A stretch of DNA of 48,828 bases. Origin: a virus. Taxonomy: Duplodnaviria > Heunggongvirae > Uroviricota > Caudoviricetes. Of this stretch, positions 1,125-48,828 are shown one piece after another; the first letter of the stretch is position 1, and the number at the start of each line of letters is the position of its first letter. The notes beneath the pieces are model-generated. The model saw only the letters and a program-made list of their open reading frames with translations. It was not told the DNA's origin and did not search any database. The position numbers and the translations under genes were made by a program. The stretch lies in IMG/VR virus record IMGVR_UViG_3300045988_154803; one strand, written 5' to 3'.

Positions 1125-1200
1125 TGGTTGATGCGTGCGCTCATGAGAAAAGCGCATAGAATGTTGTAACTATATATTTATATAATTATAGAAATATATA

Positions 1201-1410
1201 TTACTTGGGGCAGTTGATTTCCCATGCCCTGTTATGAGCCAGAATATCTTTCTTTGTCTGGCGGTCCATAACATCGATATCGTGATCAGTCAGGTAGATG
1301 GGCTTTACCCAATCACAGGCGGTATCAACCACCACCGGGACGCTTCCACGACTCCCGCAGCTCGCGATCAACATCGTCATCAGCCATATGGTTAACACTC
1401 TGCTGTACAT
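1201..1410 (-). CDS. o-spanin (Rz1-like outer-membrane lipoprotein); true start probably internal (MTMLIASCG)
   Basis: Lipobox LIASC followed by short Pro-rich periplasmic segment; overlaps 3' end of the i-spanin in another frame. Confidence 0.55.
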   Translation of the reverse strand: MYSRVLTIWLMTMLIASCGSRGSVPVVVDTACDWVKPIYLTDHDIDVMDRQTKKDILAHNRAWEINCPK

Positions 1411-5274: not shown

Positions 5275-5573
5275 TCCTCATCTGCAACGGGGGTGTTTCG
5301 CTCCAGCACCTTGTCCGCATCAGCGATCAGGTTTGCCAGACTATTGTCTGAAATCTTCGTTACCGGAGTCGTTGGTTGCTCAACCTGCCCGATAGGTTTT
5401 ATCGTGCTCAAAAGGAGGCGACGGCGGGAAAGTGGTGCCCCACAACGACGGCCATCTTCCTTGCGATATGTTTCTTTCGGACCAACACACCAGGTTGTCG
5501 GCGTTTCACGCAACTTCACTCTTTTCTCACCATCATTGGTAATGATTATTCCGGTATGGGTTTTGATGCTCAT
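5208..5573 (-). CDS. Hypothetical protein
   Basis: 121-aa ORF; overlaps neighbour in a different frame. Confidence 0.35.
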   Translation of the reverse strand: MSIKTHTGIIITNDGEKRVKLRETPTTWCVGPKETYRKEDGRRCGAPLSRRRLLLSTIKPIGQVEQPTTPVTKISDNSLANLIADADKVLERNTPVADEEWWQDFRAAMLELQERRREELK

Positions 5574-5872
5574 GCCACAGCCCCTCTCAACGGCTTAACT
5601 TTGGCTAATAAGGTGTTAAACAACATGGAGTTAGGATTCATGCCAAATGGCAATTCCGGTTTAGCGGAGTAGTACAGGCAACCATTTATTTTCCTGGTTG
5701 TTATCTGTCCTTCGGCAACCATGCTTCTCAGTCTGCAACGCATAGAGTTCTGCGACACACCAATGTGCTCCGCGATTACGTCCACTTTTGAACATGGGTG
5801 ATCGGTCAGGAAATTAATCACATCTTGGGGGTTAATAATTTTGCGTTTCATTGTCGAGGCGTCCTTATACAT
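5570..5872 (-). CDS. Small winged-helix-like DNA-binding protein (candidate regulator)
   Basis: 100 aa; helix-turn-helix-like VIAEHIGVSQNSMRCRLRSMVAEG; preceded by AT palindrome promoter. Confidence 0.4.
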   Translation of the reverse strand: MYKDASTMKRKIINPQDVINFLTDHPCSKVDVIAEHIGVSQNSMRCRLRSMVAEGQITTRKINGCLYYSAKPELPFGMNPNSMLFNTLLAKVKPLRGAVA

Positions 5873-5897
5873 TTATATAAATATATAATTCTATATA

Positions 5898-5917
5898 CGG
5901 CGGGAGACGTCCCGCCG
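5898..5917 (-). terminator. Hairpin terminator after DUF3560-like gene
   Basis: cggcggga-gacg-tcccgccg perfect 8-bp stem followed by AT-rich palindromic tract. Confidence 0.45.
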
Positions 5918-5928: not shown

Positions 5929-6996
5929 TCAGGCTTTCAATAGCGATTCTTTTAGATATCGGGCATCAGCCAGGGCGTTTGGAGTAATCTTGCGAACCCA
6001 TGCATTACGGGTTGGACTCCACTTAAAGGCGCGTGATTTAAGCAGCGAACGAATGTTTGCCTCTGGTTTGCCAGGGAAATAAAACAGGATGCGGTTATCC
6101 TCTGGATCTATCTCCATAGAAAAGCCGTCGTATTCTTCGCGCTGTGCTCCTGTTACAGACTTGACCGATTCAAGCTCCTTAATACGGCTCTGTAGTCGTT
6201 TGATTTCGGCGTTATTGTTGCTCAGTGCGTATGAAGGGAATCCGATGCGCCCACAGAAATCTCCGGCCAGTAACTCTTTGGCTTCGCTTTCTGTAAACCT
6301 GAGATCGATTAATGCAGAAAGCTGCTGTAATTGGTCTTTTTTGTATTTGCGAATGGCCTTATTTGCGGCCTTCATTTTGACGTGTGACTTCATGCAGCCT
6401 TGCAGCTTACGAAGCAACTTAAATAGCGCATCAGGATCATCAGACGAAATTCCATTACGACCAACACCTGCGGCTTTGCTCTCGTAGTGTGATGCTTTAC
6501 TTTCGCATTCAACAAACGCTTTTCTTAATAACGCATCAGCTTTAGACAAACGGCGGCGATGGCCTTTCGCGCTATAATGGTCAACTAAAATCGGCTGGCC
6601 TAACGGGATCACATCCAACAGGTCATGCGCTCGCTTATGCGCTACCGCACCTTCTTTTCTGGCTTTTTCTGCACGAGCAATATATCGGGCAAGACGCGCG
6701 TTCTGGCGTTCCTGATAGGTGTTTACGTAATCATCTCCGCGCTGCTGCTGTTCAAGCCATGCTTTGCGCAGATCTTCTGTTACGTCCACCAGCTCCGCAG
6801 GGATACAACCAGTTTGGGCTTCATAAGAGTAACCATCCTCATAGATGCGCCCATCGTCTTCAACAAAGAAAAAGGTTTCGTGCTCATCGCTTTTGACCAT
6901 ACGACCATTAACATGGCGTAATAGGTAGCCAGTATCAGTGCTTAACAGGCTGTTAGGGTTGTTGATCCAGTCAGAAATAATTTCTTGTTTATTCAT
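5929..6996 (-). CDS. DUF3560-like protein (unknown function; family seen on plasmids)
   Basis: 355 aa; motif GQPILVDHYSAKGHRRR recalled from DUF3560; first gene after leader cassette A. Confidence 0.5.
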   Translation of the reverse strand: MNKQEIISDWINNPNSLLSTDTGYLLRHVNGRMVKSDEHETFFFVEDDGRIYEDGYSYEAQTGCIPAELVDVTEDLRKAWLEQQQRGDDYVNTYQERQNARLARYIARAEKARKEGAVAHKRAHDLLDVIPLGQPILVDHYSAKGHRRRLSKADALLRKAFVECESKASHYESKAAGVGRNGISSDDPDALFKLLRKLQGCMKSHVKMKAANKAIRKYKKDQLQQLSALIDLRFTESEAKELLAGDFCGRIGFPSYALSNNNAEIKRLQSRIKELESVKSVTGAQREEYDGFSMEIDPEDNRILFYFPGKPEANIRSLLKSRAFKWSPTRNAWVRKITPNALADARYLKESLLKA

Positions 6997-7112
6997 CAGA
7001 TTTCTCCGGTTTAACCAGGGCGGGTATCGCTCGGTTTCGGGTATAACCTTAGGAAATTTTTTCCCACCTGTAAAGCGCTTTTTATATAAATCTATAATTA
7101 TATATTTATAGA
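6997..7112 (-). promoter_or_regulatory. Conserved promoter/5' leader cassette, copy A
   Basis: Near-identical to 16461-16580 and 48667-48785; ends at the start codon with GGAG RBS; contains TATAATTATA palindrome. Confidence 0.6.
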
Positions 7113-7165
7113 TTTTCGATGTTACCGATGTCTACACACCATCAAAACAGCTCAAAATGACACTT

Positions 7166-7543
7166 TTACTCTCTTCGCTTTTTCAAATAGTCGACAACAT
7201 ACGCCCTGGCTTTTGCCAGCTTCCGGCGATACTGTCTGAGACTAAGAGAAAGGGCGTGGGCTTTATCAATATGCGGTGCATTTATGTCGAGGCCCCGAAT
7301 CTCCCACGCCCCGTATTCAATTCGGACAACCAGCGCCGCAGTCTCATCAACTACCGTGAGGGCCGTCACCGCTCCCTCGATACTGGTTTCCAGTGAGTCA
7401 TTTGGTGCGCCGCCCCCTCCGGTAAACTGGCAGCGCGTAACCATCATCATTTCTAACATCGACGCGAAACCGCTACGGGCGTTGCAGCCATTGCGCACCC
7501 ACAGCGCCCATAGCTCAAACAAGCTATCCAGATCGCGTCTCAC
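7166..7543 (-). CDS. Possible Q-like antiterminator (Phage_antitermQ-like)
   Basis: 125 aa; N-terminal LFELWALWV resembles LERWGAWA start of small Q-family proteins (recalled); sits immediately upstream of leader cassette A. Confidence 0.4.
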   Translation of the reverse strand: MRRDLDSLFELWALWVRNGCNARSGFASMLEMMMVTRCQFTGGGGAPNDSLETSIEGAVTALTVVDETAALVVRIEYGAWEIRGLDINAPHIDKAHALSLSLRQYRRKLAKARAYVVDYLKKRRE

Positions 7544-9534: not shown

Positions 9535-9652
9535 ACCACGATATGTGGTATTAAAACCACATATTGTGAGTTTTTCAATGGGCGAAACAAAAAATAACCT
9601 TCTATTTGTGGTCCACCTCTCGTCTTACCATGTGAAAACCACTAAATGTGGT
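9535..9652. promoter_or_regulatory. Immunity operator/promoter region: three ACCAC-N5-GTGGT-type palindromes
   Basis: ACCACGATATGTGGT (9535-9549), ACCACATATTGTGAG (9556-9570), ACCACTAAATGTGGT (9638-9652). Confidence 0.6.
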
Positions 9653-10830: not shown

Positions 10831-10842
10831 CCCGCTTATATG

Positions 10843-10948
10843 ATTATAGATTTATATAATTATATAAAACGCTTTTCATCAGCCAAAAAGTTGGTTATGC
10901 TTACCTCGTTCTATAAATATAGATTTATAGAATTATATAACCAAACAC
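10843..10948. promoter_or_regulatory. parA upstream region with AT palindromes (candidate centromere/operator)
   Basis: Perfect 16-bp palindrome TTATATAATTATATAA at 10843-10858 and a related repeat CTATAAATATAGATTTATAGAATTATATAA. Confidence 0.5.
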
Positions 10949-11617
10949 ATGGAGTCTCGACAAATGACTATCTCTGTAGGTATTTTCAACGGAAAAGGCG
11001 GCGTAACCAAATCAACAATTGCCCGTGCTTTAGCAGTTGCTTATGCAAAGGCTGGCTGGAATGTATGCCTGATCGATATGGATGTGCTTAACGGAACGGT
11101 AACGCGTTGGGTACAACGCAGAATGGCCAACAATATCGAACCAGCAATCGCGGCGCAGCCGTGCGGCACACCATCACAAGTCCAGAAAATCATCGAATCA
11201 GAAGTATACGACCTGGTTATCGTTGATGGCGGTGCCTACGCATCTGAATCAGTACCGAAGCTCTCTGAATTTCTGGATATGGTTATTTTGCCAACCAGAT
11301 TCTCTACCGATGACCTGGAAACCACCGTTAACACAGCTCACGGCATCGTTAAAAAGGGTGTACCAATCAAGAAAATTTGCATGGTGTTTTCCGGCGCGGC
11401 TGAAAACGAAGCTGACTATATTGAAGCCCAAGAGTACCTGGCTAATACGCCATACTTTGTTGTCGATAAGTACATTCCCCACAAGCCAGCTCTGAGCAAA
11501 GCTCAGGATAAGGGCTTAAGCCTCATTGAGTGCTCATACGTTGCGCCACGCAAAAAGGCAGACGACGTTATTCAGGGGATTATCAACCAGCTTGAGGCTC
11601 TGACTACTGCCGCGTAA
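10949..11617 (+). CDS. parA: ParA-family partition ATPase (small, type Ib-like); likely start at 10964
   Basis: Deviant Walker A GKGGVTKST; ~217 aa without N-terminal HTH. Confidence 0.85.
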   Translation: MESRQMTISVGIFNGKGGVTKSTIARALAVAYAKAGWNVCLIDMDVLNGTVTRWVQRRMANNIEPAIAAQPCGTPSQVQKIIESEVYDLVIVDGGAYASESVPKLSEFLDMVILPTRFSTDDLETTVNTAHGIVKKGVPIKKICMVFSGAAENEADYIEAQEYLANTPYFVVDKYIPHKPALSKAQDKGLSLIECSYVAPRKKADDVIQGIINQLEALTTAA

Positions 11618-11629
11618 TATATAATTATA
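11618..11629. repeat. TATATAATTATA palindrome between parA and downstream RHH gene
   Basis: Perfect 12-bp palindrome. Confidence 0.6.
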
Positions 11630-11660
11630 GTTTTATAGATTTATATAAGAGGGGATACAC

Positions 11661-11909
11661 ATGGCCGCACCATCAAAACCACCAAAGAAGAACAGCAAAG
11701 GCGTACCGCCATCGATCGAACAACCGCAGGTTTTCGACCCGACTGAAACGCCAACCAGAACCAAATCAGGTGGGGCACAAATGGCGTTTAACGTCGACCC
11801 TGAATTTAAACGCGAGTACAAAACGTTCGCCAGCTCAATGGATATGTCATTGAAAGAAGTGCTGACAAAATCTTTTGAGTTACTCAAGGCTCAATACAAC
11901 CAGAAGTAA
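11661..11909 (+). CDS. Small ribbon-helix-helix-like protein, ParG-like centromere-binding partner
   Basis: 82 aa; basic disordered N-terminus then AFNVDPEFKREYKTFASSMDMSLKEVL pattern. Confidence 0.55.
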   Translation: MAAPSKPPKKNSKGVPPSIEQPQVFDPTETPTRTKSGGAQMAFNVDPEFKREYKTFASSMDMSLKEVLTKSFELLKAQYNQK

Positions 11910-12129: not shown

Positions 12130-12153
12130 ATAAAAAAGCCCCCGAAGGGGCCT
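12130..12153. terminator. Hairpin terminator (U-run on minus strand, A-run on plus)
   Basis: gcccccgaaggggc stem-loop flanked by A6 on plus strand. Confidence 0.5.
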
Positions 12154-12725
12154 AATCGCTACTTGCTGCTAATGTTTATCGTCACATTCAGAGCGTTATC
12201 AGTAATCTTCCAACCCTCCCCATGTGGCGTAAACAAAGCTCCAGTAACAACGATAAAAATACACATACAGTATTTTTTCATTGTATGGCCCTTACAGGCC
12301 GTTTCACGGCATCCCCACCGACGAAAACAACGCGAGAGCAAGCACGGCTGCTTGTGCTTGCATGTACGGCAACGGAGAATCCTCCCCTAAAGTCGGTGCC
12401 CGGGTGCGAATCGGCGGGAAGGTCCACAGGTATTTTACGATTATTTTAAGATTAGTAATAGGAAAGAAATTAAACGAAAAAACTCGTTTATTTTCACAAA
12501 ATCAGTAACCTACCCACAATCTGTGAGTTTGCAGGCACAACAAGAACCACAATTTTTTGAAGCATAATAGTGGACTATTATTACCTTTTGGGTAAAATTA
12601 ACTTGCTGCTTGTGCTTGCGTGGTTGTTTATACAACAACGTAATGCTGAAAGGACCGCGAATCCGATCAGCACGAAAGAACCGTCCTCAATAGGGCGGTT
12701 TTTTTGTTTCTGCCTACCAATAAAC

Positions 12726-12738
12726 CCACGCTATGTGG
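12726..12738. promoter_or_regulatory. Fourth CCAC-N5-GTGG operator-like palindrome
   Basis: CCACGCTATGTGG abutting candidate -35 TTGTCT. Confidence 0.5.
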
Positions 12739-12773
12739 TTGTCTCTGTTAAAATCCCGCCGTATTGACATGAA

Positions 12774-12873
12774 TGCGCCATTGGTGGACACTTTCCGAGC
12801 CGTAGCAAAATCTACGGCCGGGATTGGAACCCCGATAATCATCATGGCGCATACCGCGTTAGCGGTTTTTTTA
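12774..12873 (+). ncRNA. Candidate small RNA (~100 nt) ending at intrinsic terminator
   Basis: Candidate promoter TTGTCT-N17-TATTGA; internal hairpin ccgtagcaaaatctacgg; terminator ccgc-gtta-gcgg + T7 at 12854-12872. Confidence 0.3.
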
Positions 12874-13037
12874 TGCGTAAAGCACTGCTACACCCAAATT
12901 ATGGTGGGGCGTGCGGGGGAGTCGTAAGACTCGCCGGATTCCATGGTGACCGGTAGTTCCAACCCTGTACGTCTCACCACCCAATGATTGGAACCAGACG
13001 GTGGTGAGTATCCTTAACCTTTAAGGGAACTATCACC

Positions 13038-13229
13038 ATGACAAACTTACCCCATGACTATTACGTCAACCTCGTAAAGATCCTTCTCAAGAAAGCCTCA
13101 TACGCCGATAAACTCCGCCTGGCTGAAATCATCGAGCGCGAAGCTATGCGCATCGCCAGCAACGATAACGCTGTTTCTGACGCAAAAATCTCCCTCGTAA
13201 CCAAAGTAGTTATGGGAGGTACAAAATGA
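13038..13229 (+). CDS. Small protein upstream of antirepressor
   Basis: 63-aa ORF with stop/start overlap (ATGA) to antirepressor. Confidence 0.4.
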   Translation: MTNLPHDYYVNLVKILLKKASYADKLRLAEIIEREAMRIASNDNAVSDAKISLVTKVVMGGTK

Positions 13230-14368
13230 AAACGCTTCCGACCGTTAACACCCTACAGCCTATCCTGCATAACCAGATCCCCGTTATCACTAGTGAACTT
13301 CTGGCGCAGTTATACGGAACAAAAATCAAAAACATTTCTGATAACTTTCTGAACAACACGACGCGATTCATAGCCGGAAAGCATTACTTTAAAATTGAAA
13401 AAAACGAATTACGCGAGTTCAAGAACAGACCTGAAACAATCGGGTTAGTTGGTAAAAATGCCCGCTCCCTAATTCTCTGGACCGAACACGGAGCAGCCCG
13501 TCACGCCAAAATGCTCGAAACCGATCAGGCTTGGGATGTGTTCGAAAAACTGGAAGACTGCTATTTCAACCAGAACGCACAAACGGCCGCGACCGTAACC
13601 GTCTCACCAAACAATGCTCGTGAGGTTGTCGATACGCTCAACGCCAAACCGATGTTTTACATTAAAGTGTGCAACAACGAGCCACTCACAACCTCAGCCG
13701 ATGTTGCCCAGGCATTCAGCACCACAAACAATTCCATCGTTATGGCCATCGATGCGTTACGCATTCCTCGCACAGCTGCGGCGCGTCATTTCTTTAAAGA
13801 GCAACGACCGTTGGAAGGAAGCGACCGCGAAATAACAATCTATCGCATGACAAAAGACGGATTTACCTTGCTCATGGAAAGTATCGACGGTCCAGGCGTG
13901 AAGGATATCAAGCTGGCCTACATTGAAGCCTTTAACGCTATCAGCAGCGTGTTAAAAACACAGTACGAGCGCGATCTGGCTAAACGACTGTACCAGGAAA
14001 AAACGATTATCCGCGCGGCAACAGAGCATAATCGGCTATTAACGGAACCGAACTACAGGAAGGAACTAATCAAGGAGTTTGACAAGGCAACAGGGAAAAC
14101 CAAAGCGGCGCTAAGTCTGCCAGCAATGACTCAGGAAAATGTGATATCAGCCTTACTTCTTGATCTGCTCAGAAACGCCAGAGCACTTATCAGCTTTGAC
14201 GAAAACCTGAATCCTCAGCTCAAGCTACTACCACCGACAGGCAAAGTAGTCGACCAGGCTGATCACAACAGCATACTCAGCGTACTGGATGCAAACCTGC
14301 CAGCCAGGACACTACAGGATCTGATAAAAACATGTGCTGATAAGCTGGCACAGAAAAGCAGACCATAA
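13226..14368 (+). CDS. ant: Antirepressor-like protein (ORF6N/KilA-N-type N-terminal domain + Rha-like domain)
   Basis: N-terminal IPVITSELLAQLYGTKIKNISDNFLNNTTRFIAGKHYF; central PLTTSADVAQAFSTTNNSIVMAIDAL. Confidence 0.7.
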   Translation: MKTLPTVNTLQPILHNQIPVITSELLAQLYGTKIKNISDNFLNNTTRFIAGKHYFKIEKNELREFKNRPETIGLVGKNARSLILWTEHGAARHAKMLETDQAWDVFEKLEDCYFNQNAQTAATVTVSPNNAREVVDTLNAKPMFYIKVCNNEPLTTSADVAQAFSTTNNSIVMAIDALRIPRTAAARHFFKEQRPLEGSDREITIYRMTKDGFTLLMESIDGPGVKDIKLAYIEAFNAISSVLKTQYERDLAKRLYQEKTIIRAATEHNRLLTEPNYRKELIKEFDKATGKTKAALSLPAMTQENVISALLLDLLRNARALISFDENLNPQLKLLPPTGKVVDQADHNSILSVLDANLPARTLQDLIKTCADKLAQKSRP

Positions 14369-16079: not shown

Positions 16080-16460
16080 TTACTTAACGAGGAATAAAAA
16101 TGGTTTATTGTTCGGCGGTGTAATCGGGGCTGGCTCGCTTTTGCTCATGCGATCAGTGTACCAGGCCAACTCCTTGTCAAAGTAAGCCTGATTAAAATAG
16201 GCCATGAATGTAGTTTCAAATCCATAACGACCGCTAATACGCAGCATCTGATTGCCGTTCTCTGTTTCCAGATATACCTGGGCACGTTCCTGATTCTCCT
16301 TCAGCCAGGTTAAAGCCTCATCGCATGAGGACACACGATACTCATCATCGTAGCAGTCATCGATGCGGCTTGAGGAAGAACGGCAAATCACGCCAACAGA
16401 ACCAGCCAGGATAGTTTGAATTTTAAGGAAAGCGTTTTTGCGGATTTTAATCATGCTCAT
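16080..16460 (-). CDS. Hypothetical protein (first gene after leader cassette B)
   Basis: 126-aa ORF starting exactly at end of conserved leader. Confidence 0.5.
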   Translation of the reverse strand: MSMIKIRKNAFLKIQTILAGSVGVICRSSSSRIDDCYDDEYRVSSCDEALTWLKENQERAQVYLETENGNQMLRISGRYGFETTFMAYFNQAYFDKELAWYTDRMSKSEPAPITPPNNKPFLFLVK

Positions 16461-16580
16461 CGGGTTATCTCCGGTTTAACCAGGGCGGGTATCGCTCGGT
16501 TTCGGGTATAACCTTAGGAATTTTTTTCCCACCTGTAAAGCACTTTTTATATAAATATATAATTATATAATTCTATGAGC
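16461..16580 (-). promoter_or_regulatory. Conserved promoter/5' leader cassette, copy B
   Basis: Near-identical to copies A and C; palindrome TATATAATTATATA at 16556-16569. Confidence 0.6.
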
Positions 16581-17514: not shown

Positions 17515-17805
17515 CTATTTTTGTGACTTTACTCCTGGCATATGGACTTCCCAGCGACGAATCCCCATAGCTGCGCAAAAATCAGCCACATAATTCAATC
17601 CCGCCCATTCGCGGATACCACCACGGGCTTTTTCAATGAAAACGGCAATCCCTTTTTTATTGAGAGCAAAAAGCCGCCAGCTTTTTGTCACTTCGTCCTG
17701 GGTAGCCACAACACAAGTGAAAGCTCCCATGCGATACAGGTCCAAGAACTCTTTGCGTGTTTTGCGTACAAGTTCCATAACAAACCTCATATTTGCATGT
17801 TTCAA
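17515..17805 (-). CDS. Hypothetical protein
   Basis: 96-aa ORF adjacent to origin region. Confidence 0.35.
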   Translation of the reverse strand: MKHANMRFVMELVRKTRKEFLDLYRMGAFTCVVATQDEVTKSWRLFALNKKGIAVFIEKARGGIREWAGLNYVADFCAAMGIRRWEVHMPGVKSQK

Positions 17806-18101
17806 ACATCTGTTTTGTTATCAATGAAGATTAACCCTAACCCAGCGAAGTAACACAGCAGCGCCCAGGCTGCATACGGAATGCTGGATCTGGATGTGGA
17901 CTCCTTTAACATCTGCCAGTTGCGAACATTGCGACTATCTTTTAAGCCTAGTTTTTTGGCCAACTGCGAGCCGCTCATTCCGGTCAGGCCAATGACTGCC
18001 CGAACTTCTCCACATGTAGGAGATTCCCATTCATCCGCTTTTTTTAAACAAGCCGGATTCAACATTTTTAAAACAGTATCTTTATCCATAACCATCTCCA
18101 T
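17802..18101 (-). CDS. Hypothetical protein with HTH-like segment and hydrophobic C-terminus
   Basis: VIGLTGMSGSQLAKKLGL; C-terminal AAWALLCYFAGLGLIFI. Confidence 0.35.
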   Translation of the reverse strand: MEMVMDKDTVLKMLNPACLKKADEWESPTCGEVRAVIGLTGMSGSQLAKKLGLKDSRNVRNWQMLKESTSRSSIPYAAWALLCYFAGLGLIFIDNKTDV

Positions 18102-18732
18102 TTATTATATCTACGATGGTAGGAAATCTTTTCCTATGTGGCAATAGAAATTTACTACATTGCGTATAAGACAAGTTTTCTATGTCTAATAGGAAATGAT
18201 GTTTCTTACGTTTTGTCGCGTTCTGATGGCTACTGTGTGCGTATTTATCGACGTTTATTGATAAGGCCCGCCCCTTCCTCCTGCAAAGCTCGGCCGTAGG
18301 CCTTATTTCGGCCTTATATAAATTGATTTTGTATAGTTCGAAACGCGCCGTTTCGAAAAGGATGATCAGGCTGCTCCATGCCTCCGGCAAGTGCCGGAGG
18401 AGGTATATTTGAGCGTAGCGACTCGAACCGGCGCGAGCTTTAGCTCGCTGCAAGGGCGAACATATTCACAGGCAAAGCCTGCGTAAGTTAAATAAAGAAA
18501 GTCTTAATAAAAGAAAGTGATTTTGCATTTATTTGTTTAGTGCATCTATTATAAAAAACCATTTGCATATACATATCAAAACTGTGGATAACTTTATTAG
18601 CCGATGCCTGTAAAGACGATATTTTTGCTGTGTTCAGGTTTAGAGAAAATTAATTTAGACTATTTTTTGAACAGATATTTTATTGCGACGTAGATAATCC
18701 TCCGGTAAAACCGGATTCATCATTCAGGTGGG
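18102..18732. other. Candidate plasmid replication origin (AT-rich, DnaA box, GC hairpins) downstream of repA
   Basis: DnaA box TGTGGATAA at 18583-18591; hairpins cgaaacg-cgc-cgtttcg, ctccggca-agt-gccggag, gcgagc-ttta-gctcgc; no credible ORF. Confidence 0.5.
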
Positions 18733-19713
18733 TTAATGTTGGAGTGATTTCCAGGTCTTTCTTAGCCTGTTATAACGCTGCTCAACGAGGGATCGTAAAT
18801 ATGCAAGGTCAGCACCTGGATACATGCCATCAGCAAATTCCTGGCTAACCTCTCTAGTGATTTGATGACGAAGTTCGGCCTCTCCCTTTTCCTGAACAAG
18901 ACGCGCAGCTCTCTCCGCTGCTTTCTGTTTTGCCTTTATCTCTCTGGCCGTCTTCCTCTGACGCCATACATTCTCCATCTGCTCCTGAATAACAATACGC
19001 TTATAATCAGCCTCCGTTATCGCTTTTTTAAGCCGTTCGCTATTCTTCGCATTGAAGTAATTAAGTTTCTGGCTAACCGCACGTCTCCATGCTTGTTCAG
19101 TAATACCAACGATTTCCAGCAGTTGATCACGAATCTCTATTTTCGCTGGCCAATACTGTTTATTCACCCGATCCCAGCGACGTTCATAATCAATAAAACC
19201 TAACGCTTTCAGTTGCGACAACGCCCTTGTACAGCGCGTTATAGACTTGTTCCCAGCTTCGGATACGGTAGACAGGCCGCAAAAATCAGCCAACGCCTCA
19301 GCACTGGCCAGAACCCGCTTAGAAATGATGTTTACATGGTGCAAAATCGCAGCAATCACAGCATTAATCGCCCGACGACGATGCTCGTTTATCCGGCGTT
19401 TCCGCTCTGACGGTTGATTAACGTAGAACGCAACCTCACACGTAAGATCACGACCATTAATGCGCTGTAAAGCATCAGATAACACCAGCGGCAGCTTGTG
19501 CGTATGGTGCTTTGGAGGCTGGAACTCCGGCGACAAATTACAAACGTAAGCTGAACGTAGAGACGGCATTGGTCTATCCATATGTTCGCTCTTGCGTCCA
19601 CGGAAAACCAACGTATAATGGGAGTTGTCGAGGCGCCCATGGATTGTTTTTGTTGGTTTTCCGTGGATGTCGCAAGAAGCCCGCAGATTTATCTGCGGGC
19701 TTTTTGTTTCCAT
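18733..19713 (-). CDS. repA: IncFII-type RepA replication initiator (RepA1-like); true start possibly internal
   Basis: RRRAINAVI...GLSTVSEAGNKSITRCTRALSQLKALGFIDY aligns by eye to R1/R100 RepA1 block RRRAIDALL...GLATESAAGKLSITRATRALTFLSELGLITY (recalled). Confidence 0.8.
   Translation of the reverse strand: METKSPQINLRASCDIHGKPTKTIHGRLDNSHYTLVFRGRKSEHMDRPMPSLRSAYVCNLSPEFQPPKHHTHKLPLVLSDALQRINGRDLTCEVAFYVNQPSERKRRINEHRRRAINAVIAAILHHVNIISKRVLASAEALADFCGLSTVSEAGNKSITRCTRALSQLKALGFIDYERRWDRVNKQYWPAKIEIRDQLLEIVGITEQAWRRAVSQKLNYFNAKNSERLKKAITEADYKRIVIQEQMENVWRQRKTAREIKAKQKAAERAARLVQEKGEAELRHQITREVSQEFADGMYPGADLAYLRSLVEQRYNRLRKTWKSLQH
19679..19710 (+). terminator. Plus-strand intrinsic terminator antisense to repA 5' region (candidate CopA-like RNA 3' end)
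   Basis: gcccgcag-atttat-ctgcgggc followed by TTTTTGTTT. Confidence 0.4.
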
Positions 19714-19894: not shown

Positions 19895-20449
19895 TCAATG
19901 ATTCCCAGCCGGAAACCTGCGGTAAAGCGTGGATAAGGTAACATCGAAGATAATCGCTATCCGCTTACGTGAAACACCATTCGCAATAAGCCTTCCGATC
20001 TGTTCCCATTGCTCTGGTGCCAATTTTGAGCGGCGTCCTCCTATCCTGCCGTTAGCCCTTGCCACCGCCAATCCTGCACGCGTTCTTTCAATCATATTTT
20101 CCCGCTCCATCTCTGCGACTGCACTCAGCATCGTGTAGGCAAAGCGGCCAATTGAAGTGCTAATTTTTATCCCTTCCGTAATCGAAATAAACTCAATGTT
20201 GTTTGATAAAAAATGGTTAAGTAAATCAACAAGATGAATCAGAGAACGCCCCATTCGGTCCAGCTTCCAGACAATAACCGTATCGCCCGGCCGTAACACC
20301 TTAAGTAGCTTATCAAGTCCTGGTCGTTTTGATTTAGCACCGGATATTTTATCTTCAAAAATCTGGTCACATCCTGAACTCCTGAGCGCCTCCAGTTGTA
20401 ATTCCAAATTCTGGTCAAAAGTTGACACCCTCGCATAACCATATTGCAT
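19895..20449 (-). CDS. Gin/Hin/Cin/Pin-family serine DNA invertase
   Basis: 184 aa; YARVSTFDQ catalytic Ser motif, WKLDRMGRS, C-terminal HTH; alignable along full length to Mu Gin as recalled. Confidence 0.95.
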   Translation of the reverse strand: MQYGYARVSTFDQNLELQLEALRSSGCDQIFEDKISGAKSKRPGLDKLLKVLRPGDTVIVWKLDRMGRSLIHLVDLLNHFLSNNIEFISITEGIKISTSIGRFAYTMLSAVAEMERENMIERTRAGLAVARANGRIGGRRSKLAPEQWEQIGRLIANGVSRKRIAIIFDVTLSTLYRRFPAGNH

Positions 20450-22495: not shown

Positions 22496-24814
22496 TTAAA
22501 TACTCCCCGCGTTATACCACGTCCCATTAATGCAATACTGAATTGGCCTTGCCTGTGTTGTATCAATTAATTCATCACGGTTTCCGTTAACTGAACCCGT
22601 AACGACATAACCTGACCTGTCAGACCAGCCGGGGCCATTCCATGTCTGAACAGATGACAGACCGCCAAGGCGAATACCTGTAATAAACCTTGAGTTACAT
22701 TCTGCCTGCGTATATGCACCAACATCTCCCGCAGAGGGTTTGCGGGTTGTGGTGTAAAACTCTGACCAGTCAGCTTCAAAGCCATAACCATCACGCGCTG
22801 AACGATAAAAGATTCCGCCATTTCTGTAATTCACGCGGAACTGTGCAGCAGGGCAGCTCCCCGTATTCATATTGAAGTGGAGGATTAATGTCGATGCGCC
22901 ACCAATATTTGCGTTATAGACCCCGCTATTCCAGTTCCAGCCAACAGCTTTATCATTTCCGACAGTGCTTCCTGTTTGCCCTAAAGCAAATGCAGGTTGT
23001 TGATTTTTCGTGTTGTAGTCTCGTCGCCAGCCAGGAGCGTAAGCATCACCATGATTAATATAAGTGAATTGAGCGTTAGTAATTCCTCCACCGCTGGACG
23101 TGCTCGGCGTGGTAACGCGTATGGTCATTGCGCCGCGAGTGCCAATAACTTCCACCACAGCACCTGCAAGACAAATATTTCCGCAACCTGTATCTGTAAT
23201 GACCTTATTATTTGCATAAGCCCATGAGCCTTTGCACATCCAGTAAGGATGGTTAAATGCTCCCTGACTCTCCAGCCACGAAATAAATTGCGCGGTTGTC
23301 CAGACCTGACTATCGCCACCAATATCCAGCCATGCGCTATATGCGCGGCAGGCCCCAATATTTTTGGTGAAGGTATCTTTTCCCGGAATATCTGCGCCGT
23401 TCTGGTTTTTCTGTAATGCGCCAGAAGCCTGATTTACCGTTTCCTGTAAACCGAGGTATTCGATAACGGCAGCAACGGTCGATTTCGCAAGAATATCCCG
23501 CCCGACTTTTGTCAGGGTTGCCAGGCTGGCGACATCATTCCCCGTAAAATACGGAAACTTGTCTGCCGCAGTAGCAAGCCCGGCCAGCGCCGTCAGGGTG
23601 GCATCTTTCGGTTGCTTACCCGCAAGCGCGTTAGTCATGGTGGTCGCAAAATTCGGGTCGTTTCCCAGCGCCGCCGCTAACTCGTTCAGCGTATTCAGTG
23701 CGTCAGGTGACGAGTCCACGAGGGCAGCGATCGCAGCCATAACGAAAGCCGTGCTTGCGATTTGGGTATTATTCGTTCCCTGTCGCGCAGTTGGCGTTGT
23801 TGGCGTTCCGGTCAACGCAGGACTGTTTAAGGGCGCTTTCTTGTTCGTTTCATCCATTACCGCCTTGACCGCTTTCGATGTCGCGGCCAGTGTTTCAGAC
23901 GTGCTGTTGGTGGAACTACTGAGCTGAGTTATTCCCCTTACAGTCAGTGAAGCTACAGGCACATTTGTTATCTGCTCCCACGAATGCGTGTGATTGGACG
24001 GAGCCTTTCCGGCCGCAAGATCATACGCTGCCTTAACAGCCTTTGGTGTTGCTGCTAGCGTTTCAGACGTGCTGTTGGTGGCACTACTGAGCTGAACAAT
24101 CCCTTTTCGCGCTGTGGTAGCGTCCTGTGCGGTGTATTTGCCATTAGCCAGGTCATATGCTGCCTTAACAGCCTTAGGCGTCGCAGCAAGCGTTTCAGAC
24201 GAGCTATTGGTGGCGCTGCTAAGTTGAACAAAGCCTTTTGAGGTTAAAGTTGCATCAGGATGATTACGTGATTGTTCATGTTTCACAATGGCTTGCTTAA
24301 GCCGCTTTGCTGAAACAGCAAGGGAATCATCTGTACCGTCATCAATTTCTTGTTCATTGGCAAATCTTGCAACCCCAACAACAGTTTCGGTTGCGGGAGG
24401 ATTAATAAACTCAATATCACCAAATGTAATATTTTTAGTATCAAGAGTCTTGATTGCTATGTCACTTGATATTAAAGCAATAGTAGATGATGCTTTATTT
24501 ATTATTGCTTGTTCTTGCGAGTATACAGCAAACAACGTTCCCTTATTTGTATACAATCCTATTGTATGGACAACATACTCATCTTTACTATCATCCTTCG
24601 CCGTTACATGAATTGTATCAGGGGAAACAACTTTGCCACCTATTGTGGTAAGTCGTTTTATTTCGTTTGTTATATTTGTTTGTGAAGTTGACGTGACATA
24701 ATATCTACTACCTAAACCAACAGAAACAATCTCAACTTTATTTGTTCCTGTTTTGTTGGCATTAACCAGCTCCTGACGCCCGGCGTCAGTCATCGTAAAT
24801 AATAATTTACTCAC
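22496..24814 (-). CDS. Tail fibre protein (constant N-terminal ~450 aa outside, variable C-terminus inside invertible segment)
   Basis: 772 aa; repeated SSATNS(T/S)SETLAATPKAVKAAYD collar-like motifs; crossover site lies inside the ORF. Confidence 0.85.
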   Translation of the reverse strand: MSKLLFTMTDAGRQELVNANKTGTNKVEIVSVGLGSRYYVTSTSQTNITNEIKRLTTIGGKVVSPDTIHVTAKDDSKDEYVVHTIGLYTNKGTLFAVYSQEQAIINKASSTIALISSDIAIKTLDTKNITFGDIEFINPPATETVVGVARFANEQEIDDGTDDSLAVSAKRLKQAIVKHEQSRNHPDATLTSKGFVQLSSATNSSSETLAATPKAVKAAYDLANGKYTAQDATTARKGIVQLSSATNSTSETLAATPKAVKAAYDLAAGKAPSNHTHSWEQITNVPVASLTVRGITQLSSSTNSTSETLAATSKAVKAVMDETNKKAPLNSPALTGTPTTPTARQGTNNTQIASTAFVMAAIAALVDSSPDALNTLNELAAALGNDPNFATTMTNALAGKQPKDATLTALAGLATAADKFPYFTGNDVASLATLTKVGRDILAKSTVAAVIEYLGLQETVNQASGALQKNQNGADIPGKDTFTKNIGACRAYSAWLDIGGDSQVWTTAQFISWLESQGAFNHPYWMCKGSWAYANNKVITDTGCGNICLAGAVVEVIGTRGAMTIRVTTPSTSSGGGITNAQFTYINHGDAYAPGWRRDYNTKNQQPAFALGQTGSTVGNDKAVGWNWNSGVYNANIGGASTLILHFNMNTGSCPAAQFRVNYRNGGIFYRSARDGYGFEADWSEFYTTTRKPSAGDVGAYTQAECNSRFITGIRLGGLSSVQTWNGPGWSDRSGYVVTGSVNGNRDELIDTTQARPIQYCINGTWYNAGSI
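23441..23466. repeat. Right inversion crossover site (gix/hix-like)
   Basis: TTCCTGTAAACCGAGGTATTCGATAA, close to Mu gixL as recalled. Confidence 0.85.
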
Positions 24815-29153: not shown

Positions 29154-31938
29154 AACTTAATCTCCGTTGTTGGAACATATGAGCACTCAATTTCTTCTCA
29201 AAATCAGAATATCCCGCATCTAATGCTCTTTTAGCTGCCGCCTCAGTTTCCTTTGGTGAACCAGCCGGAAGATTGATTACAGGTGAATAGGTTATTCCAC
29301 CAGTCACAGCATTAACGTTCTGGCGAGGTCCAGAAGTCCCGGCGGCAGATATCCCGTGAGGTGATAAATTTGATTGCCCGAACTTGGTTGCTATTGCATT
29401 CTGTAAGCTGTTATTCCTGCTAACGCCTGATGCCAGAGTAGTCATTATTGCACCACCTGACTTTGTTAGCTGTGAGAATGGACCTTTTTTCGCGTCAGAG
29501 AACGGTAAATACTCACGTACAGAAGAAAAAACGCCTTTCACTTCATTAATTAAAGCATTTGCTTTTGATTTTATCCCAGTGATTAACGTCTCAATTATTT
29601 TTGCGCCTGACTCACTCCAGTTTATTCCAGACAAATAAGCCGTTACAGATTGGAATGCTCTTATAAAGAGTCCAACTGGTGAAAAACGCATAAAAACAGA
29701 TACCAGTGTATCTATGATTTTCTTTCCTGTTTCGCTCCAGTTAATACCAGAAAGGTAATTTGTTGTAAGTTTAAATGCTTTAATTAAGAACGGAAGCGGA
29801 GACATCCATTTAAAAGCACTAATTAATGTACTGTAAATTCTTACTCCTGCCGAACTCCAGTTTATGTTGGAAAGATAATCCCATGCTTTACCAAACATAG
29901 ATATAATCCATCCATTGAGATCAAAGTTTAAGATAAAGTTTTTTATAGCTTCAAACGATTTAACTGTATATTCCTTAACAGAAGGCCAAACTCTGACAGC
30001 ATAATCTCTGATCTTATCCCAGTTCTGATAGAGCAATATTCCTGCGGCAACCAGCGCAGATATAGCCATCTGAATCCACCCGAAGGGTGTTAGCTTTGTC
30101 GCTACAGATAAAGCCAGCATAGCTACCCTACACGCTATAACCACACTTTTCATGGTTAGAAACGCACCTGCCGCCATCACAATCTGAGACACAAAATTGG
30201 GGTTGTTAGCTACAAATTCACTAATTTTTGTAATCAGCGGAACCAAAACACTAAGCGCGGCATTCAAAGCAGGTTGCAAGGCCTGACCAAAACTTAATGA
30301 TGCATTGCTAGCCTGAATACGTAATTGTTTCAATCGCTCCGCATTGTCTTTCGTTATGTTGGCAAAATCGCGGTCAATAACAGCACTTCCAGCACCAAGA
30401 GATGTTGCTTTGATTCTCTGGTATTCCTTCCAGTTTTGAATCATCGGACGAACAAAGTTCTGAACCTGCATATCGCCAAATAGCTCACCAAGTAACTTCT
30501 GATCTCCGTTCTTAGTCATTTTCATGACAGAATGCATTGCAGCTTCGAATGGATTCTTCCCTTTTTTCTGCGCTGTTGTGACAATTTTATATAAATCTAC
30601 ACCGAAATTTTTCTTTGCTTTTTTTAGTGTTTCAGGGGAAAGTATTTTCGCCAAAAAGTTGTTCATATTATTAGCAGCCTCATCCGAAGTTGCAGCACCT
30701 TTGCGAGCTATCTGCAAAGCTGCCCCCATCGTCGCGGCGGCTTCTTTACCTCCCATTTTTAATGCCTGGAACTGAGCACCAAGCACAGGAAGATTTTTGG
30801 CCATATCTTTAAATTCAAAGTTTCCCTCTTTCCCTGCCTGAACCAGAATCCCCATTGCAGACTTCATTTGAGATGGATCAATCTTCAATGAGTCACTTAA
30901 TGTAAATGATGCTTTCGAGACATCGAGGATATCAGAGCCAGTAGCTGTAGCTGTTCGCCCAATAGTTAGTAGATTCGCCTGAGCCTCTTTATAATCCTGC
31001 CCAGCAGCGACGAGAAAACCCTGAGCGGCCTGAATATCAGATGCAAACTGGTTGGTGGCCGTTCCGGTAACAAGCATCGCCTGCCCCATCGCCTGAACTT
31101 CTTCCGGCTTCATATCTGCCGTAAGACCAATCATTTTGTTTTCACGATTGAAATTTGCTGCATTGTTAGCAGCAGCAAATGCACCAGCCGCTACAGCACC
31201 AGTTTGTAATCCTGACCTTACAAGTTGACTCTTTGCCTCACCAAGATGCTCTCGCTTCAATTCACGCTGCCTTTCCAACGCGCGGTTTAACTCCTCCTGA
31301 GCACGTTTTACTGCAAGAACATTTTTCCGTGCTTCAGCCAACGCATTTTTATAGCTGTTAATTTTATCAATACGTTGTTTTTCTAATGCCCGGTTAAGTT
31401 CCTCCTGCTGTTTTTTCACTTGCTGAACATTTGCTCTGGCTAAAGCCAAAGCCGTTCTGTAGCGGTTAACCTGCTCAACGCTACGGACCTGAGCCTCACG
31501 ATTACGATCAATGCTGGCTTTAAGCTCTTTCTCTCTTGAGGCCAAAGCTCTGGCAGATGTATCAGCTCCCTGATAGGCAGACTTTAAAGCGGCCAGTTCT
31601 TCACGCTGAGAACGTAGTGATGCTCGTAAATTCGATGAATGTGTTTTTGCCTTCTCAAAGTCACGAAGCATCGCTCTGGTTGGATTGGCCGTGTTTTTTA
31701 TTTGCTTCTGTAACTCTTCAACGCGAGCGGCAGCTTTATGATATTCGAGGGCAGTCTGTCCAACCTTTACTTTTACAGATTGTAGCTTTTGAATTTCCCC
31801 ATGTTCTTTCGTTAATCCAGCAAGCTCGGCATTTAATTTAGCAACAGCCTGATTAGCTGTAGTAAAACTTTTGGGGAGAGAGGCGGCAACTTTGCCGCCA
31901 ATTTCAAAAGCCAGCTTAAAGTTCTTATTGCTGGCCAT
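29146..31938 (-). CDS. Tail tape measure protein
   Basis: 930 aa; N-terminal coiled-coil repeats, central hydrophobic segment, size and position after chaperone. Confidence 0.9.
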   Translation of the reverse strand: MASNKNFKLAFEIGGKVAASLPKSFTTANQAVAKLNAELAGLTKEHGEIQKLQSVKVKVGQTALEYHKAAARVEELQKQIKNTANPTRAMLRDFEKAKTHSSNLRASLRSQREELAALKSAYQGADTSARALASREKELKASIDRNREAQVRSVEQVNRYRTALALARANVQQVKKQQEELNRALEKQRIDKINSYKNALAEARKNVLAVKRAQEELNRALERQRELKREHLGEAKSQLVRSGLQTGAVAAGAFAAANNAANFNRENKMIGLTADMKPEEVQAMGQAMLVTGTATNQFASDIQAAQGFLVAAGQDYKEAQANLLTIGRTATATGSDILDVSKASFTLSDSLKIDPSQMKSAMGILVQAGKEGNFEFKDMAKNLPVLGAQFQALKMGGKEAAATMGAALQIARKGAATSDEAANNMNNFLAKILSPETLKKAKKNFGVDLYKIVTTAQKKGKNPFEAAMHSVMKMTKNGDQKLLGELFGDMQVQNFVRPMIQNWKEYQRIKATSLGAGSAVIDRDFANITKDNAERLKQLRIQASNASLSFGQALQPALNAALSVLVPLITKISEFVANNPNFVSQIVMAAGAFLTMKSVVIACRVAMLALSVATKLTPFGWIQMAISALVAAGILLYQNWDKIRDYAVRVWPSVKEYTVKSFEAIKNFILNFDLNGWIISMFGKAWDYLSNINWSSAGVRIYSTLISAFKWMSPLPFLIKAFKLTTNYLSGINWSETGKKIIDTLVSVFMRFSPVGLFIRAFQSVTAYLSGINWSESGAKIIETLITGIKSKANALINEVKGVFSSVREYLPFSDAKKGPFSQLTKSGGAIMTTLASGVSRNNSLQNAIATKFGQSNLSPHGISAAGTSGPRQNVNAVTGGITYSPVINLPAGSPKETEAAAKRALDAGYSDFEKKLSAHMFQQRRLSFG

Positions 31939-42092: not shown

Positions 42093-42653
42093 TTATTCTT
42101 CCTGCTTAATAAATCGGGATTCCTGGAGCGCCTGAAGCGCAAAATTAATCTCGTCTTCAATAATGCGTTCGATCTCCCTGGCTGTTTTGCCTTCACAACG
42201 GGGAGCTGCTCTTGGAGCAATACTAAATAAGCGGCTACGCAATTCATTAGCTGCCAGAAATGCATCATCCCTGACCGCATCTTTAGCGATGAGAGAGCCT
42301 TCCTTTTCTTCAAATTCAAGGCGTTTCAGCTTTGCCTGATAAATTTTTTCTGCGGTCTTAGCCTTGTTGAATTGCACCGCAACACCGGAAGTACCACCAG
42401 CTAATCCGGCATCATCAGCGGGTAACTCTGGTTGTTCCGAAGATATCCCATGCCCTCTTTTTCCATTTTCAGCAGATACCTCACGACCAACCTGTCGGCT
42501 CGCTTCATAAGCCGCACTGGCTTTATCAAAATCCAGCTTGCCGCTTTTCAGCACTGGAATGCGACCGGAACGACAGAGCTTCGTAACCATTGCCGGAGAA
42601 ATACCTTTCCGGCGAGCAAACTCTGACTTACTGACGATGGCCATTACTTGCAA
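42093..42653 (-). CDS. Terminase small subunit (N-terminal HTH)
   Basis: 186 aa; MAIVSKSEFARRKGISPAMVTKLCRSGRI HTH; upstream of large subunit. Confidence 0.6.
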   Translation of the reverse strand: MQVMAIVSKSEFARRKGISPAMVTKLCRSGRIPVLKSGKLDFDKASAAYEASRQVGREVSAENGKRGHGISSEQPELPADDAGLAGGTSGVAVQFNKAKTAEKIYQAKLKRLEFEEKEGSLIAKDAVRDDAFLAANELRSRLFSIAPRAAPRCEGKTAREIERIIEDEINFALQALQESRFIKQEE

Positions 42654-43234
42654 CCATTAGCAAGATACTGAACAAATCCCTCATGCGTTTCATGCGCGTC
42701 GTGGTACTGACGATAAACATCCAGCAACAATGCAATTTCCATATCCGTCGCGGGAATACGTTCTTTATCAATAGCCAGGTACTTAATTTGAACAACAGGG
42801 GAAGAATTATCGTCTTCTTCCTGCGGCTGTTCATCGCTTAACATTTCGTCAAGCTCTGCATCATTAAACCCAAGCAGATCAATATCAAAATCATCATCCA
42901 TTAACTCTTTGACTTCTTCGGCCAGAAGCTGCATATCCCAGCCAGCATTTAAGGCCAGCTTGTTATCTGCAATCCTGTAAGCCTTCTTCTGTTTTTCAGA
43001 AAGGTTACTCAACCGAATCGCCGGAACTTTATCCATTTCCAGAATTTCGGCTGCTGCAAGCCGACCATGCCCCGCAATCAGTTCATTCTTTTCATCGATC
43101 AGCACAGGATTAGTGAAACCGAACTCACGGATACTGTTCACCAACTGTTCAACCTGCTCATCTGAATGAGTCCGTGAATTTTTGGCGTATCTGAGCAGCT
43201 TACCGACTGGTAAATATTCGATTTTTAGAGCCAT
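42644..43234 (-). CDS. ParB-like nuclease domain protein (paralog 1)
   Basis: ParB/Srx N-domain: ...TNPVLIDEKNELIAGHGRLAAA...; paralogous to 45901-46524. Confidence 0.8.
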   Translation of the reverse strand: MALKIEYLPVGKLLRYAKNSRTHSDEQVEQLVNSIREFGFTNPVLIDEKNELIAGHGRLAAAEILEMDKVPAIRLSNLSEKQKKAYRIADNKLALNAGWDMQLLAEEVKELMDDDFDIDLLGFNDAELDEMLSDEQPQEEDDNSSPVVQIKYLAIDKERIPATDMEIALLLDVYRQYHDAHETHEGFVQYLANGCK

Positions 43235-43791
43235 TTTTTAACCGCCATAACACAACAGGTTAAAGAAAACTGTTTAACTTATTGATACTAAAAGAGAAAA
43301 ATGACGATCTTTTTACTCATAAAAAATCACACAAACCAGCATAATCATCTGATTTTATTAAGTTTTTATAAGTAAAAAGGATCTTGAGATGGTGTTTTGG
43401 TTAAAATATTGGATGTATTTGCATGATTTATAACGATTTTTATCAGAACAACATCACATTGGTTAAAGATCTGCGCGTATCTTGATGATCTAAAAGAAAA
43501 TTTTCTACTTTCTTTTTACCAGCACAAATACAGCAAAAAATCACGTTTTCCCGATATTTTTCAATGAGATGAGTAAATTTCTTTTACCGCAACTTTTAAC
43601 CTAACTTTTTTCACGTTTAGCTAGCCGAACATCGGGGTTCGAATGACCCGCATCCAACGCTTTTGGCCAGAAGGACCCAATTCTGCCGGACGATGAAACG
43701 ATGCTCGTGCTCCCCCACAGACAGCCAGCGAGCGACGCTACAGAACACAGTGAATACACTCTGCATAACAACACCATCAACCACACGATGA
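43235..43791. promoter_or_regulatory. AT-rich 557-bp non-coding region upstream of packaging operon (candidate late promoter and/or cos site)
   Basis: No credible ORF; AT-rich with homopolymer runs; lambda-type terminase implies a cos site nearby. Confidence 0.3.
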
Positions 43792-44511: not shown

Positions 44512-44527
44512 CAGCGCCTCCTACACA

Positions 44528-48785: not shown

Positions 48786-48828
48786 ACTTGCCAGAGAGCA
48801 TCATGCAATTGGATACCTCCATTGCACT
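48771..48828. repeat. Terminal overlap identical to 52-109
   Basis: Direct comparison. Confidence 0.9.

Follow-up and report, generated by a model that had tools for sequence, protein, structure and literature searches.

Three near-identical stretches of about 120 nucleotides (nt) on the minus strand of IMG/VR virus record IMGVR_UViG_3300045988_154803, a tailed virus whose 48,828 nt we refer to here as the window, lead directly into the start codons of three different genes. We consider it probable that these cassettes are sigma-70 promoter and leader modules of the 'kil-kor' type known from IncP-1 plasmids, each of which would be bound by a KorC-like repressor in the spacer between its -35 and -10 elements and by the partition protein of the element at an AT-rich array just upstream. 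What is new is the host, a phage-plasmid, and the presence, in place of the KorA operator, of arrays common to a ParG-like partition system; the literature that we searched contained no paper describing these cassettes, and none linking KorC to phage-plasmids in substance. The model draws on the anatomy of the sequences, their homology, their co-variation and their concerted evolution; what it says of protein binding, of repression, and of where and when transcription begins is inferred from these.

Anatomy and concerted evolution of the cassettes

A repeat finder placed the copies at 6992-7113, 16457-16578 and 48663-48784 (cassettes A, B and C), and, the terminal overlap aside, the window has no other long family of non-coding repeats. 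Cassettes B and C are 98% identical without gaps and A and B 87%, the latter value rising to 93-94% once one 1-nt gap is allowed. The likeness ends at the ATG and about 120 nt upstream of it, with flanks that do not align, and the open reading frames (ORFs) that follow are unrelated, falling into three PHROG families (355 amino acids (aa), phrog_6744; 126 aa, phrog_8090; 89 aa, phrog_6143); the 355-aa product of the cassette A gene matches Pfam DUF3560 (E 8e-31). A GGAG motif precedes the ATG by 7 nt in cassette A and by 8 nt in B and C. An earlier, sequence-only reading of this DNA had described three near-identical minus-strand copies, each ending with a GGAG motif at the ATG of a different, unrelated gene, and both descriptions stand; it had also allowed that the similarity might be limited to an AT-rich palindrome, and the alignment extends beyond this over the whole of the roughly 120 nt up to the ATG.

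Read 5' to 3' on the minus strand, each copy has four 8-base-pair (bp) TTATAKAW units (for example TCATAGAA TTATATAA TTATATAT TTATATAA), 7 nt, the -35 element TTTACA, GG, and a 17-bp palindrome, TGGGAAA-N3-TTTCCTA, whose final two bases are the first two of the -10 element TAAGGT. A leader of about 47 nt containing ACCGAGC, AAACCGGAGA and the GGAG then runs, through a further 7-8 nt, to the ATG. The -10 element reads TAAGGT, TATGGT, TACTAT or TAGTGT in variants of the cassette, so that TAnnnT is kept, and it is on this conservation together with the IncP homology that the promoter assignment rests. Across relatives, the conserved positions are exactly the -35 element, the arms of the palindrome, the TAnnnT of the -10 element and the Shine-Dalgarno sequence. 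The cassette family is real and non-random. With two operator-like elements common to every copy, the earlier suggestion of a shared regulatory cassette holds, whilst its common operator needs to be redrawn: the TATAATTATA palindrome is indeed found in every copy but is just part of the four-unit array, and the shared operator-like elements are not this AT-rich 'palindrome' alone, the 17-bp spacer palindrome being the most informative. Given that cassette B follows the higBA terminator and that the cassette C operon (89-aa and 66-aa genes) closes at a strong terminator at 48178-48155, the cassettes drive short operons.

A search of related genomes, as the sequence-only reading had proposed, recovered the cassette widely. 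In PLSDB it matches 67 plasmids, nearly all of about 48 kb and from E. coli (the plasmid of E. coli ATCC 25922 among them), with three copies in almost every one. Among 5426 complete E. coli genomes it turned up in 74, the reference strain ATCC 25922 included, at a median of three copies, and 210 of the 213 places are plasmid-borne. It was also found in a Salmonella lineage and, in two copies, in a distant relative that we refer to as L030 (IMGVR_UViG_640753048_000002, 46804 bp). A scan of viral contigs for the leader pattern gave, outside the cassette family and L030, nothing but chance matches in coding sequence.

Comparison of these genomes establishes that the copies evolve in concert. Between the -35 element and the ATG, copies within one genome are 95-99% identical, compared with 84-90% for orthologous copies of E. 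coli and Salmonella, and lineage-specific changes are common to all copies of one genome. The segment adjacent to the Shine-Dalgarno sequence exists in two variants, GAGAAATCTG and GAGATAACCCG, whose placement among the loci differs from genome to genome; copy C of the window and copy C of ATCC 25922 carry opposite variants. Since these variants have been swapped among loci between genomes, we attribute the likeness of the copies to gene conversion, and the recombination between copies that had been suggested earlier is thereby supported.

A KorC-type spacer element and kinship with IncP-1 promoters

The spacer palindrome is, on the evidence of its position and distribution, a putative KorC-type operator. 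Allowing at most one mismatch, it occurs at four sites in the window against 0.06 strand matches expected. The fourth site, which is perfect, sits at the equivalent place between the -35 and -10 elements of the promoter that precedes a 95-aa gene adjoining repA and the presumed replication origin; this promoter has the layout of the cassettes, lacks the AT array and has a different leader. The close relatives of the 95-aa protein form a narrow set. One of them (P0128), at 52% identity, is encoded in the korC position of an IncP-1-like plasmid, between klcB and kleE/korA/incC/korB, and P0128 is in turn 60-62% identical to proteins annotated as KorC, with relatives in 1711 plasmids of PLSDB. The 95-aa protein is also 48% identical to the annotated KorC of the IncP-1 plasmid pMLUA1, and these identities place it in the KorC family. 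KorC has been described as the chief global regulator in the IncU plasmid RA3 (PMC7414963), and in pOXA-48 a KorC site lies between the -35 and -10 elements of korC's own promoter (PMC12365149).

The palindrome and the protein appear to change together. In the E. coli lineage the operator reads TRGGAAA-N3-TTTCCTA. In the Salmonella lineage, where the homologue of the 95-aa protein is 72% identical, all four sites read TAGGAAA(A/T)ATTTTCCTA, and in L030, where identity of the homologue falls to 33%, the sequence TAGG(T/A)C-N5-G(A/T)CCTA is found at the two cassettes and in the promoter of the homologue itself. As judged from these alignments, the palindrome and the KorC-like protein co-vary among relatives.

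The promoters regulated by KorC in IncP-1 plasmids, those of klcA, kleA and kleC (PMC12365149), offer the closest comparison. In the klcA promoter of an IncP-1-like contig we find the KorA operator GTTTAGCTAAAC, then TAGGGCATTATGCCCTA, TAAT ... GACCGAGC ... CCAAACCGGAGAAAGACCGATG, and the kleA promoter of pMLUA1 reads GTTTAGCTAAAA-CGC-TTGACA-GC-TAGGGCAAATTGCCCTA-ATAT ... AAGGTCAATACCGGAGAATTTCCGATG. The klcA promoter of pMLUA1 has nearly the same sequence as its kleA promoter, with unrelated genes downstream, so that IncP-1 plasmids already show near-identical promoter and leader units on unrelated genes. The layout shared by the klcA and kleA promoters (klcAp and kleAp) is a -35 element, 2 nt, TAGGGCA-N3-TGCCCTA and a -10 element, and a joint alignment with the cassettes from the -35 element to the ATG brings out common TAGG/CCTA arms, a common -10 position and the segment ACCGAGC ... 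AAACCGGAGA-N4-CCGATG. On this alignment, the cassettes are relatives (homologues) of the IncP-1 klcAp and kleAp promoters. The KorA operator GTTTAGCTAAAC has no better-than-chance match anywhere in the window, and the AT array holds its position.

The likeness to klcAp, kleAp and kleCp of the IncP-1 plasmids (RK2/RP4) extends to a KorC-family repressor encoded on the element itself, a 17-bp TAGG-N9-CCTA palindrome in the -35/-10 spacer, several near-identical promoter and leader copies with an alignable leader on unrelated short operons, and a second operator, putative here, just upstream of or over the -35 element. The differences lie in the host, which here is a tailed phage-plasmid with an IncFII-type RepA rather than a conjugative plasmid; in the co-operator position, taken by the KorA operator in IncP-1 and by four 8-bp units common to the par locus here; in the inner bases of the palindrome, which are AAA/TTT here and GCA/TGC in IncP-1; and in the cargo, which consists of the DUF3560, 126-aa and 89-aa genes and not of klc or kle genes.

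AT-rich arrays shared with the partition locus

Arrays of at least three 8-bp units with a TATA core occur eight times in the window, compared with 0.02 expected, and the 8-bp register and four-unit length are strict at all eight sites. Three are those of the cassettes, two flank the parA promoter (TTTTCA-N17-TATGCT), one lies between parA and a gene for an 82-aa protein, and the other two precede a MarR-like gene and tRNA-Met. The array before the MarR-like gene comes after a G+C-rich hairpin that closes the DUF3560 gene. The 222-aa product of parA matches Pfam CbiA, ParA and MipZ as well as phrog_164 (ParA-like).

The 82-aa protein has a basic, proline-rich, disordered N-terminal tail followed by a predicted strand-helix-helix segment, and its structural model consists of a disordered tail and two helices at moderate confidence (predicted local distance difference test (pLDDT) 65). 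A sensitive search with this protein gave 102 representatives of similar size; Pfam RHH_10 is matched by 29 of 57 aligned family members and Pfam ParG by 4 of 57, and among solved structures the family profile matches ParG best (1P94, E = 0.099), along the ribbon-helix-helix part. No relatives were found when species-representative genomes were searched with the 82-aa protein. Relatives of the window whose homologue of the 82-aa protein is 40-46% identical keep dispersed arrays with an 8-bp period, at their parA promoters included, and the unit itself changes. The unit TTATAKAW of the window goes with the putative DNA-reading strand residues AQMAF, TCTTTAAW of L030 with KLMNF, AATGTWTA of a further relative, L031, with KPMHF, and TTAAATAW with KAMNF in L032 and RPLNF in L033. 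Type Ib partition proteins such as ParG and omega bind promoter-overlapping arrays of short repeats and double as repressors (PMC5016525), and on this pattern of shared and co-varying repeats the cassette arrays probably bind the partition protein of the element.

In the omega system of pSM19035 (inc18) and the ParG/parH system of TP228, as here, the pair consists of a small ParA and, after it, a small protein of ribbon-helix-helix type (predicted in our case) with a flexible basic tail, and arrays of short direct and inverted repeats overlap promoters (PMC5016525). The arrays of pSM19035 are spread over several promoters and act as centromeres, and the repeats of TP228 are split by AT-rich spacers (PMC5016525). 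Unlike in those plasmids, the unit here is 8 bp long and almost pure A+T, eight four-unit arrays are dispersed over a phage genome, three of them are paired with a second, putative KorC-type operator, and binding to the arrays is predicted. A tie between partition and gene expression through scattered sites, some near promoters, is also known for a partition DNA-binding protein of RK2, KorB (ParB) (PMC7314908), and dispersed centromere sites with partition tied to expression are reported for the Sop system of the phage-plasmid N15 (Ravin, Rech & Lane 2008, as cited in PMC11652158). KorB and N15 Sop are helix-turn-helix proteins of the ParB family that use single inverted repeats, in contrast to the predicted ribbon-helix-helix type and tandem 8-bp units found here.

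Table 1. Positions in the window of the cassettes, their parts and the loci of the two candidate regulators
Feature	Position	Strand	Remarks
Cassette A (promoter and leader)	6997-7113	-	ends at ATG 6996-6994 of 355-aa DUF3560 gene (5929-6996)
Cassette A, promoter parts	array 7082-7113; -35 TTTACA 7069-7074; putative KorC-type palindrome 7050-7066; -10 TAAGGT 7046-7051	-	
Cassette A, leader parts	ACCGAGC 7029-7035; Shine-Dalgarno CCGGAGA 7003-7009	-	
Cassette B	16461-16578	-	directly after higBA terminator (16609-16587); ends at ATG of 126-aa gene (16080-16460)
Cassette B, promoter parts	array 16547-16578; -35 16534-16539; palindrome 16515-16531; -10 16511-16516	-	
Cassette B, leader parts	ACCGAGC 16494-16500; Shine-Dalgarno 16468-16474	-	
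Cassette C	48667-48784	-	ends at ATG of 89-aa gene (48397-48666)
Cassette C, parts	array 48753-48784; -35 48740-48745; palindrome 48721-48737; -10 48717-48722; Shine-Dalgarno 48674-48680	-	
KorC-like gene promoter	18116-18144	-	TTGCCA 18139-18144, CA, perfect palindrome TAGGAAAAGATTTCCTA 18120-18136, TACCAT 18116-18121
Gene of 95-aa KorC-family repressor (MDKDTVLK...)	17802-18089	-	candidate binder of the 17-bp palindromes
parA promoter region	10836-10940	+	array 10836-10867, -35 TTTTCA 10873-10878, -10 TATGCT 10896-10901, array 10909-10940
ParA-type partition ATPase	10949-11617	+	likely start ATG 10964; 222 aa
Third array of the par locus	11617-11648	+	between parA and 82-aa gene
82-aa ParG-like ribbon-helix-helix protein (predicted)	11661-11909	+	candidate binder of the 8-bp-unit arrays
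AT array without KorC-type palindrome	5857-5902	-	directly upstream of MarR-like 100-aa gene (5570-5872)
AT array without KorC-type palindrome	1162-1209	.	between lysis cluster and tRNA-Met (959-1031)

Regulatory model, competing explanations and the host element

In the model that we favour, a dimer of the 95-aa KorC-family protein would bind the 17-bp spacer palindrome and block RNA polymerase at the three cassettes and at its own promoter. The 82-aa ParG-like protein would bind the four TTATAKAW units just upstream of the -35 element, and, beyond the cassettes, the arrays that surround the parA promoter and those at the starts of two other genes. The three short operons would thus be held off in the established plasmid-prophage and expressed briefly when repressors are missing or too few, such as right after the DNA enters a cell, comparable with the zygotic induction of RP4 klcA, and gene conversion would keep the cassette copies near-identical. 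The klcA gene is jointly and strongly repressed by KorA and KorC, and its expression rises about 120-220-fold on plasmid entry (PMC7314908). A wider version of this model, which we would place below an even chance and offer tentatively, has the partition protein, with its eight dispersed arrays, as the co-repressor of KorC in an IncP-like circuit that couples segrosome assembly, copy number and the burst of entry genes, and has the shared leader segment (ACCGAGC ... AAACCGGAGA) as a conserved post-transcriptional element and not just a ribosome-binding site.

Several points weigh against the favoured model. The -10 element is weak, TAAGGT matching at three of six positions, and because of this a simple sigma-70 promoter scan gives no call at the cassette promoter. 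The co-variation spans just three or four lineages. The 82-aa protein itself has no direct Pfam or PDB match, and its assignment to the ribbon-helix-helix proteins rests on the family profile and on the structural model described above. Another co-varying protein, such as the 124-aa product encoded upstream of parA, could be the binder of the arrays, and either UP-element activity or recognition by host nucleoid proteins could account for the AT-rich arrays. A part for the cargo operons in establishment is proposed by analogy.

The most serious of the competing explanations, which we nonetheless think unlikely, accepts the KorC-type part and takes the arrays to be operators of some other protein of the phage-plasmid, binding sites of a host nucleoid protein (H-NS, IHF or Fis), or else curved DNA or UP elements. 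The arrays are 90-100% A+T, those of the cassettes span roughly -38 to -70, the zone in which UP elements act, other arrays directly precede genes with no recognisable -35 and -10 elements, and the 82-aa protein lacks a direct family match. This explanation does not sit easily with the strict register and unit number of all eight arrays, nor with the way in which three of them bracket parA and the 82-aa gene, like the centromere and operator repeats of type Ib systems (PMC5016525). Moreover, the array unit shifts in step with the putative ribbon-helix-helix protein whilst A+T richness is kept, which generic AT-binding proteins would not need. A very unlikely alternative is that the conserved leader is a riboregulator, either a structured cis element or a target of the C4, isrK or ryfA RNAs encoded on the element. 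The phage-plasmid and the IncP-1 plasmids have conserved parts of the leader in common, and a small predicted hairpin (AACCG..GCG...CGC..CUGGUU), accompanied by a weaker one over the Shine-Dalgarno sequence, changes from AACC...GGUU to GACC...GGUC in L030. However, this is one covarying pair from a single event, the folding z-scores of the leaders are just -1.4 to -2.5, and an Rfam search of the leader gave no match at the gathering score or at E <= 1. The structured 5' untranslated region proposed by the sequence-only reading is therefore weakly supported. Antisense control by C4, isrK or ryfA was rejected, as the duplex energies of the leader with these RNAs are no better than those of shuffled leaders. 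The partial conservation of the leader with IncP-1 could reflect common descent and selection on the ribosome-binding region.

We give less credence still to a lambda-type late control, in which cassette A would be a pR'/qut-like site for a 'Q-like' protein and cassettes B and C further Q-dependent late promoters. As in the lambdoid Q/pR'/qut arrangement, the promoter directly follows a small regulator gene and has an element in its -35/-10 spacer, where the Q-binding element of lambda is likewise positioned. The gene in question encodes a 125-aa protein (7166-7543, minus strand) and ends about 50 nt upstream of cassette A. The AlphaFold model of this protein (pLDDT 77) has phage 21 Q as its best PDB folds with a probability of 0.87-0.96, but these matches are weak and not significant (E 0.2-0.5; template modelling score about 0.5, root-mean-square deviation 9-10 A), and sigma region 4 comes next with a similar score; by sequence, the protein has no Q-family, Pfam or PDB match. 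From its model the 125-aa protein may be a late-gene regulator, and its identity is irrelevant to the cassette. Because there is no terminator between the cassette promoter and the ATG, the 47-nt leader leading straight into the start codon, because copy B sits behind higBA in the plasmid-maintenance region, because the spacer element is of the KorC type, recurring at the korC-like gene's own promoter and co-varying with the KorC-like protein, and because homologous cassettes occur in IncP-1 conjugative plasmids without Q, the cassette is not a qut site, and the analogy drawn earlier with lambdoid phages falls. Equally improbable in our view is that the copies are recent duplications or recombination scars with no common regulation, a mobile promoter like the PeSL cassettes of T4-type phages. 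All three copies are direct repeats, copies within a genome are more alike than orthologous ones, and sub-segments have been exchanged between loci. Against this, three copies are kept at the same three loci in the 67 plasmids, the 74 E. coli genomes and Salmonella and Serratia-like relatives, and conservation is confined exactly to the functional positions listed above; gene conversion accounts for the identity of the copies, not for their persistence.

The element that carries the cassettes is a phage-plasmid, and the window represents its circular assembly of about 48.7 kb. Positions 1-51 are the Illumina Nextera i5 adapter (AGATCTACAC-CTATTAAG-TCGTCGGCAGCGTCAGATGTGTATAAGAGACAG), a contamination of the record, and positions 52-109 duplicate 48771-48828, from which it follows that the assembly is circular and that cassette C spans the join, which falls inside its AT array. 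Yersinia phages vB_YpM_39, 41 and 44 are about 99% identical to the window. Genes of plasmid type (IncFII-type RepA, ParA, HigBA) stand alongside those of phage type, namely a CI-like repressor, a C4/isrK and Ant immunity module, lysis genes, a lambda-like head and a contractile tail (myovirus). The pSLy3/SSU5 group of phage-plasmids was considered as a home for the element and rejected, being a different group of elements.

Several other features of the element were recorded. The likely CI/Cro operators are ACCAC-N5-GTGGT palindromes, found at 9536, 9557 and 9639 in the divergent region between cI and the early genes (9536-9651), with extra single sites at 10390, after cI, and at 12726, before the immunity module, where the CI-operator-like site reads CCACGCTATGTGG; control of the cassettes by CI was rejected, as these operators are absent from them. 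The P1-like immI module (12726-14368, plus strand) comprises isrK (12799-12872), the C4 antisense RNA (12897-12984), a 63-aa ORF and a 380-aa anti-repressor with ORF6N and Rha domains. A full-length match to the ryfA RNA family (138 bits; 12132-12427, minus strand) lies between the par locus and this module. Beyond the 326-aa RepA of the IncFII family comes AT-rich DNA that contains a DnaA box, TTATCCACA, near 18590 (region 18130-19713, minus strand); this is presumably the plasmid origin, and the korC-like promoter lies immediately downstream of it. Just before the terminase genes are three ORFs whose products have ParB/Srx N-terminal domains (207, 459 and 196 aa; 42644-46524, minus strand), as called in RefSeq for a near-identical plasmid, and these bear no relation to the partition pair of ParA and the predicted ribbon-helix-helix protein. 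Direct repeats that keep the reading frame lie in the tail-fibre gene (93-nt units, 23847-24239) and in the tape-measure gene (45-nt units at 120-nt spacing, 29597-29881), and a Hin-type invertase (19895-20449) adjoins opposed tail-fibre assembly genes.

Phage-plasmids are common in Enterobacteriaceae and, to our knowledge, the control of their plasmid-state as opposed to phage-state genes has barely been studied. If the favoured model is right, then KorC and repeated kil promoters, thought to be proper to conjugative broad-host-range plasmids, would have been adopted by a phage and rewired to a putative ribbon-helix-helix partition protein. The outcome is a list of candidates, namely two repressors, four plus eight sites and three target operons. 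By analogy with klcA, these cargo operons (DUF3560; 126 aa; 89 and 66 aa) are candidates for functions in the entry and establishment of the element.

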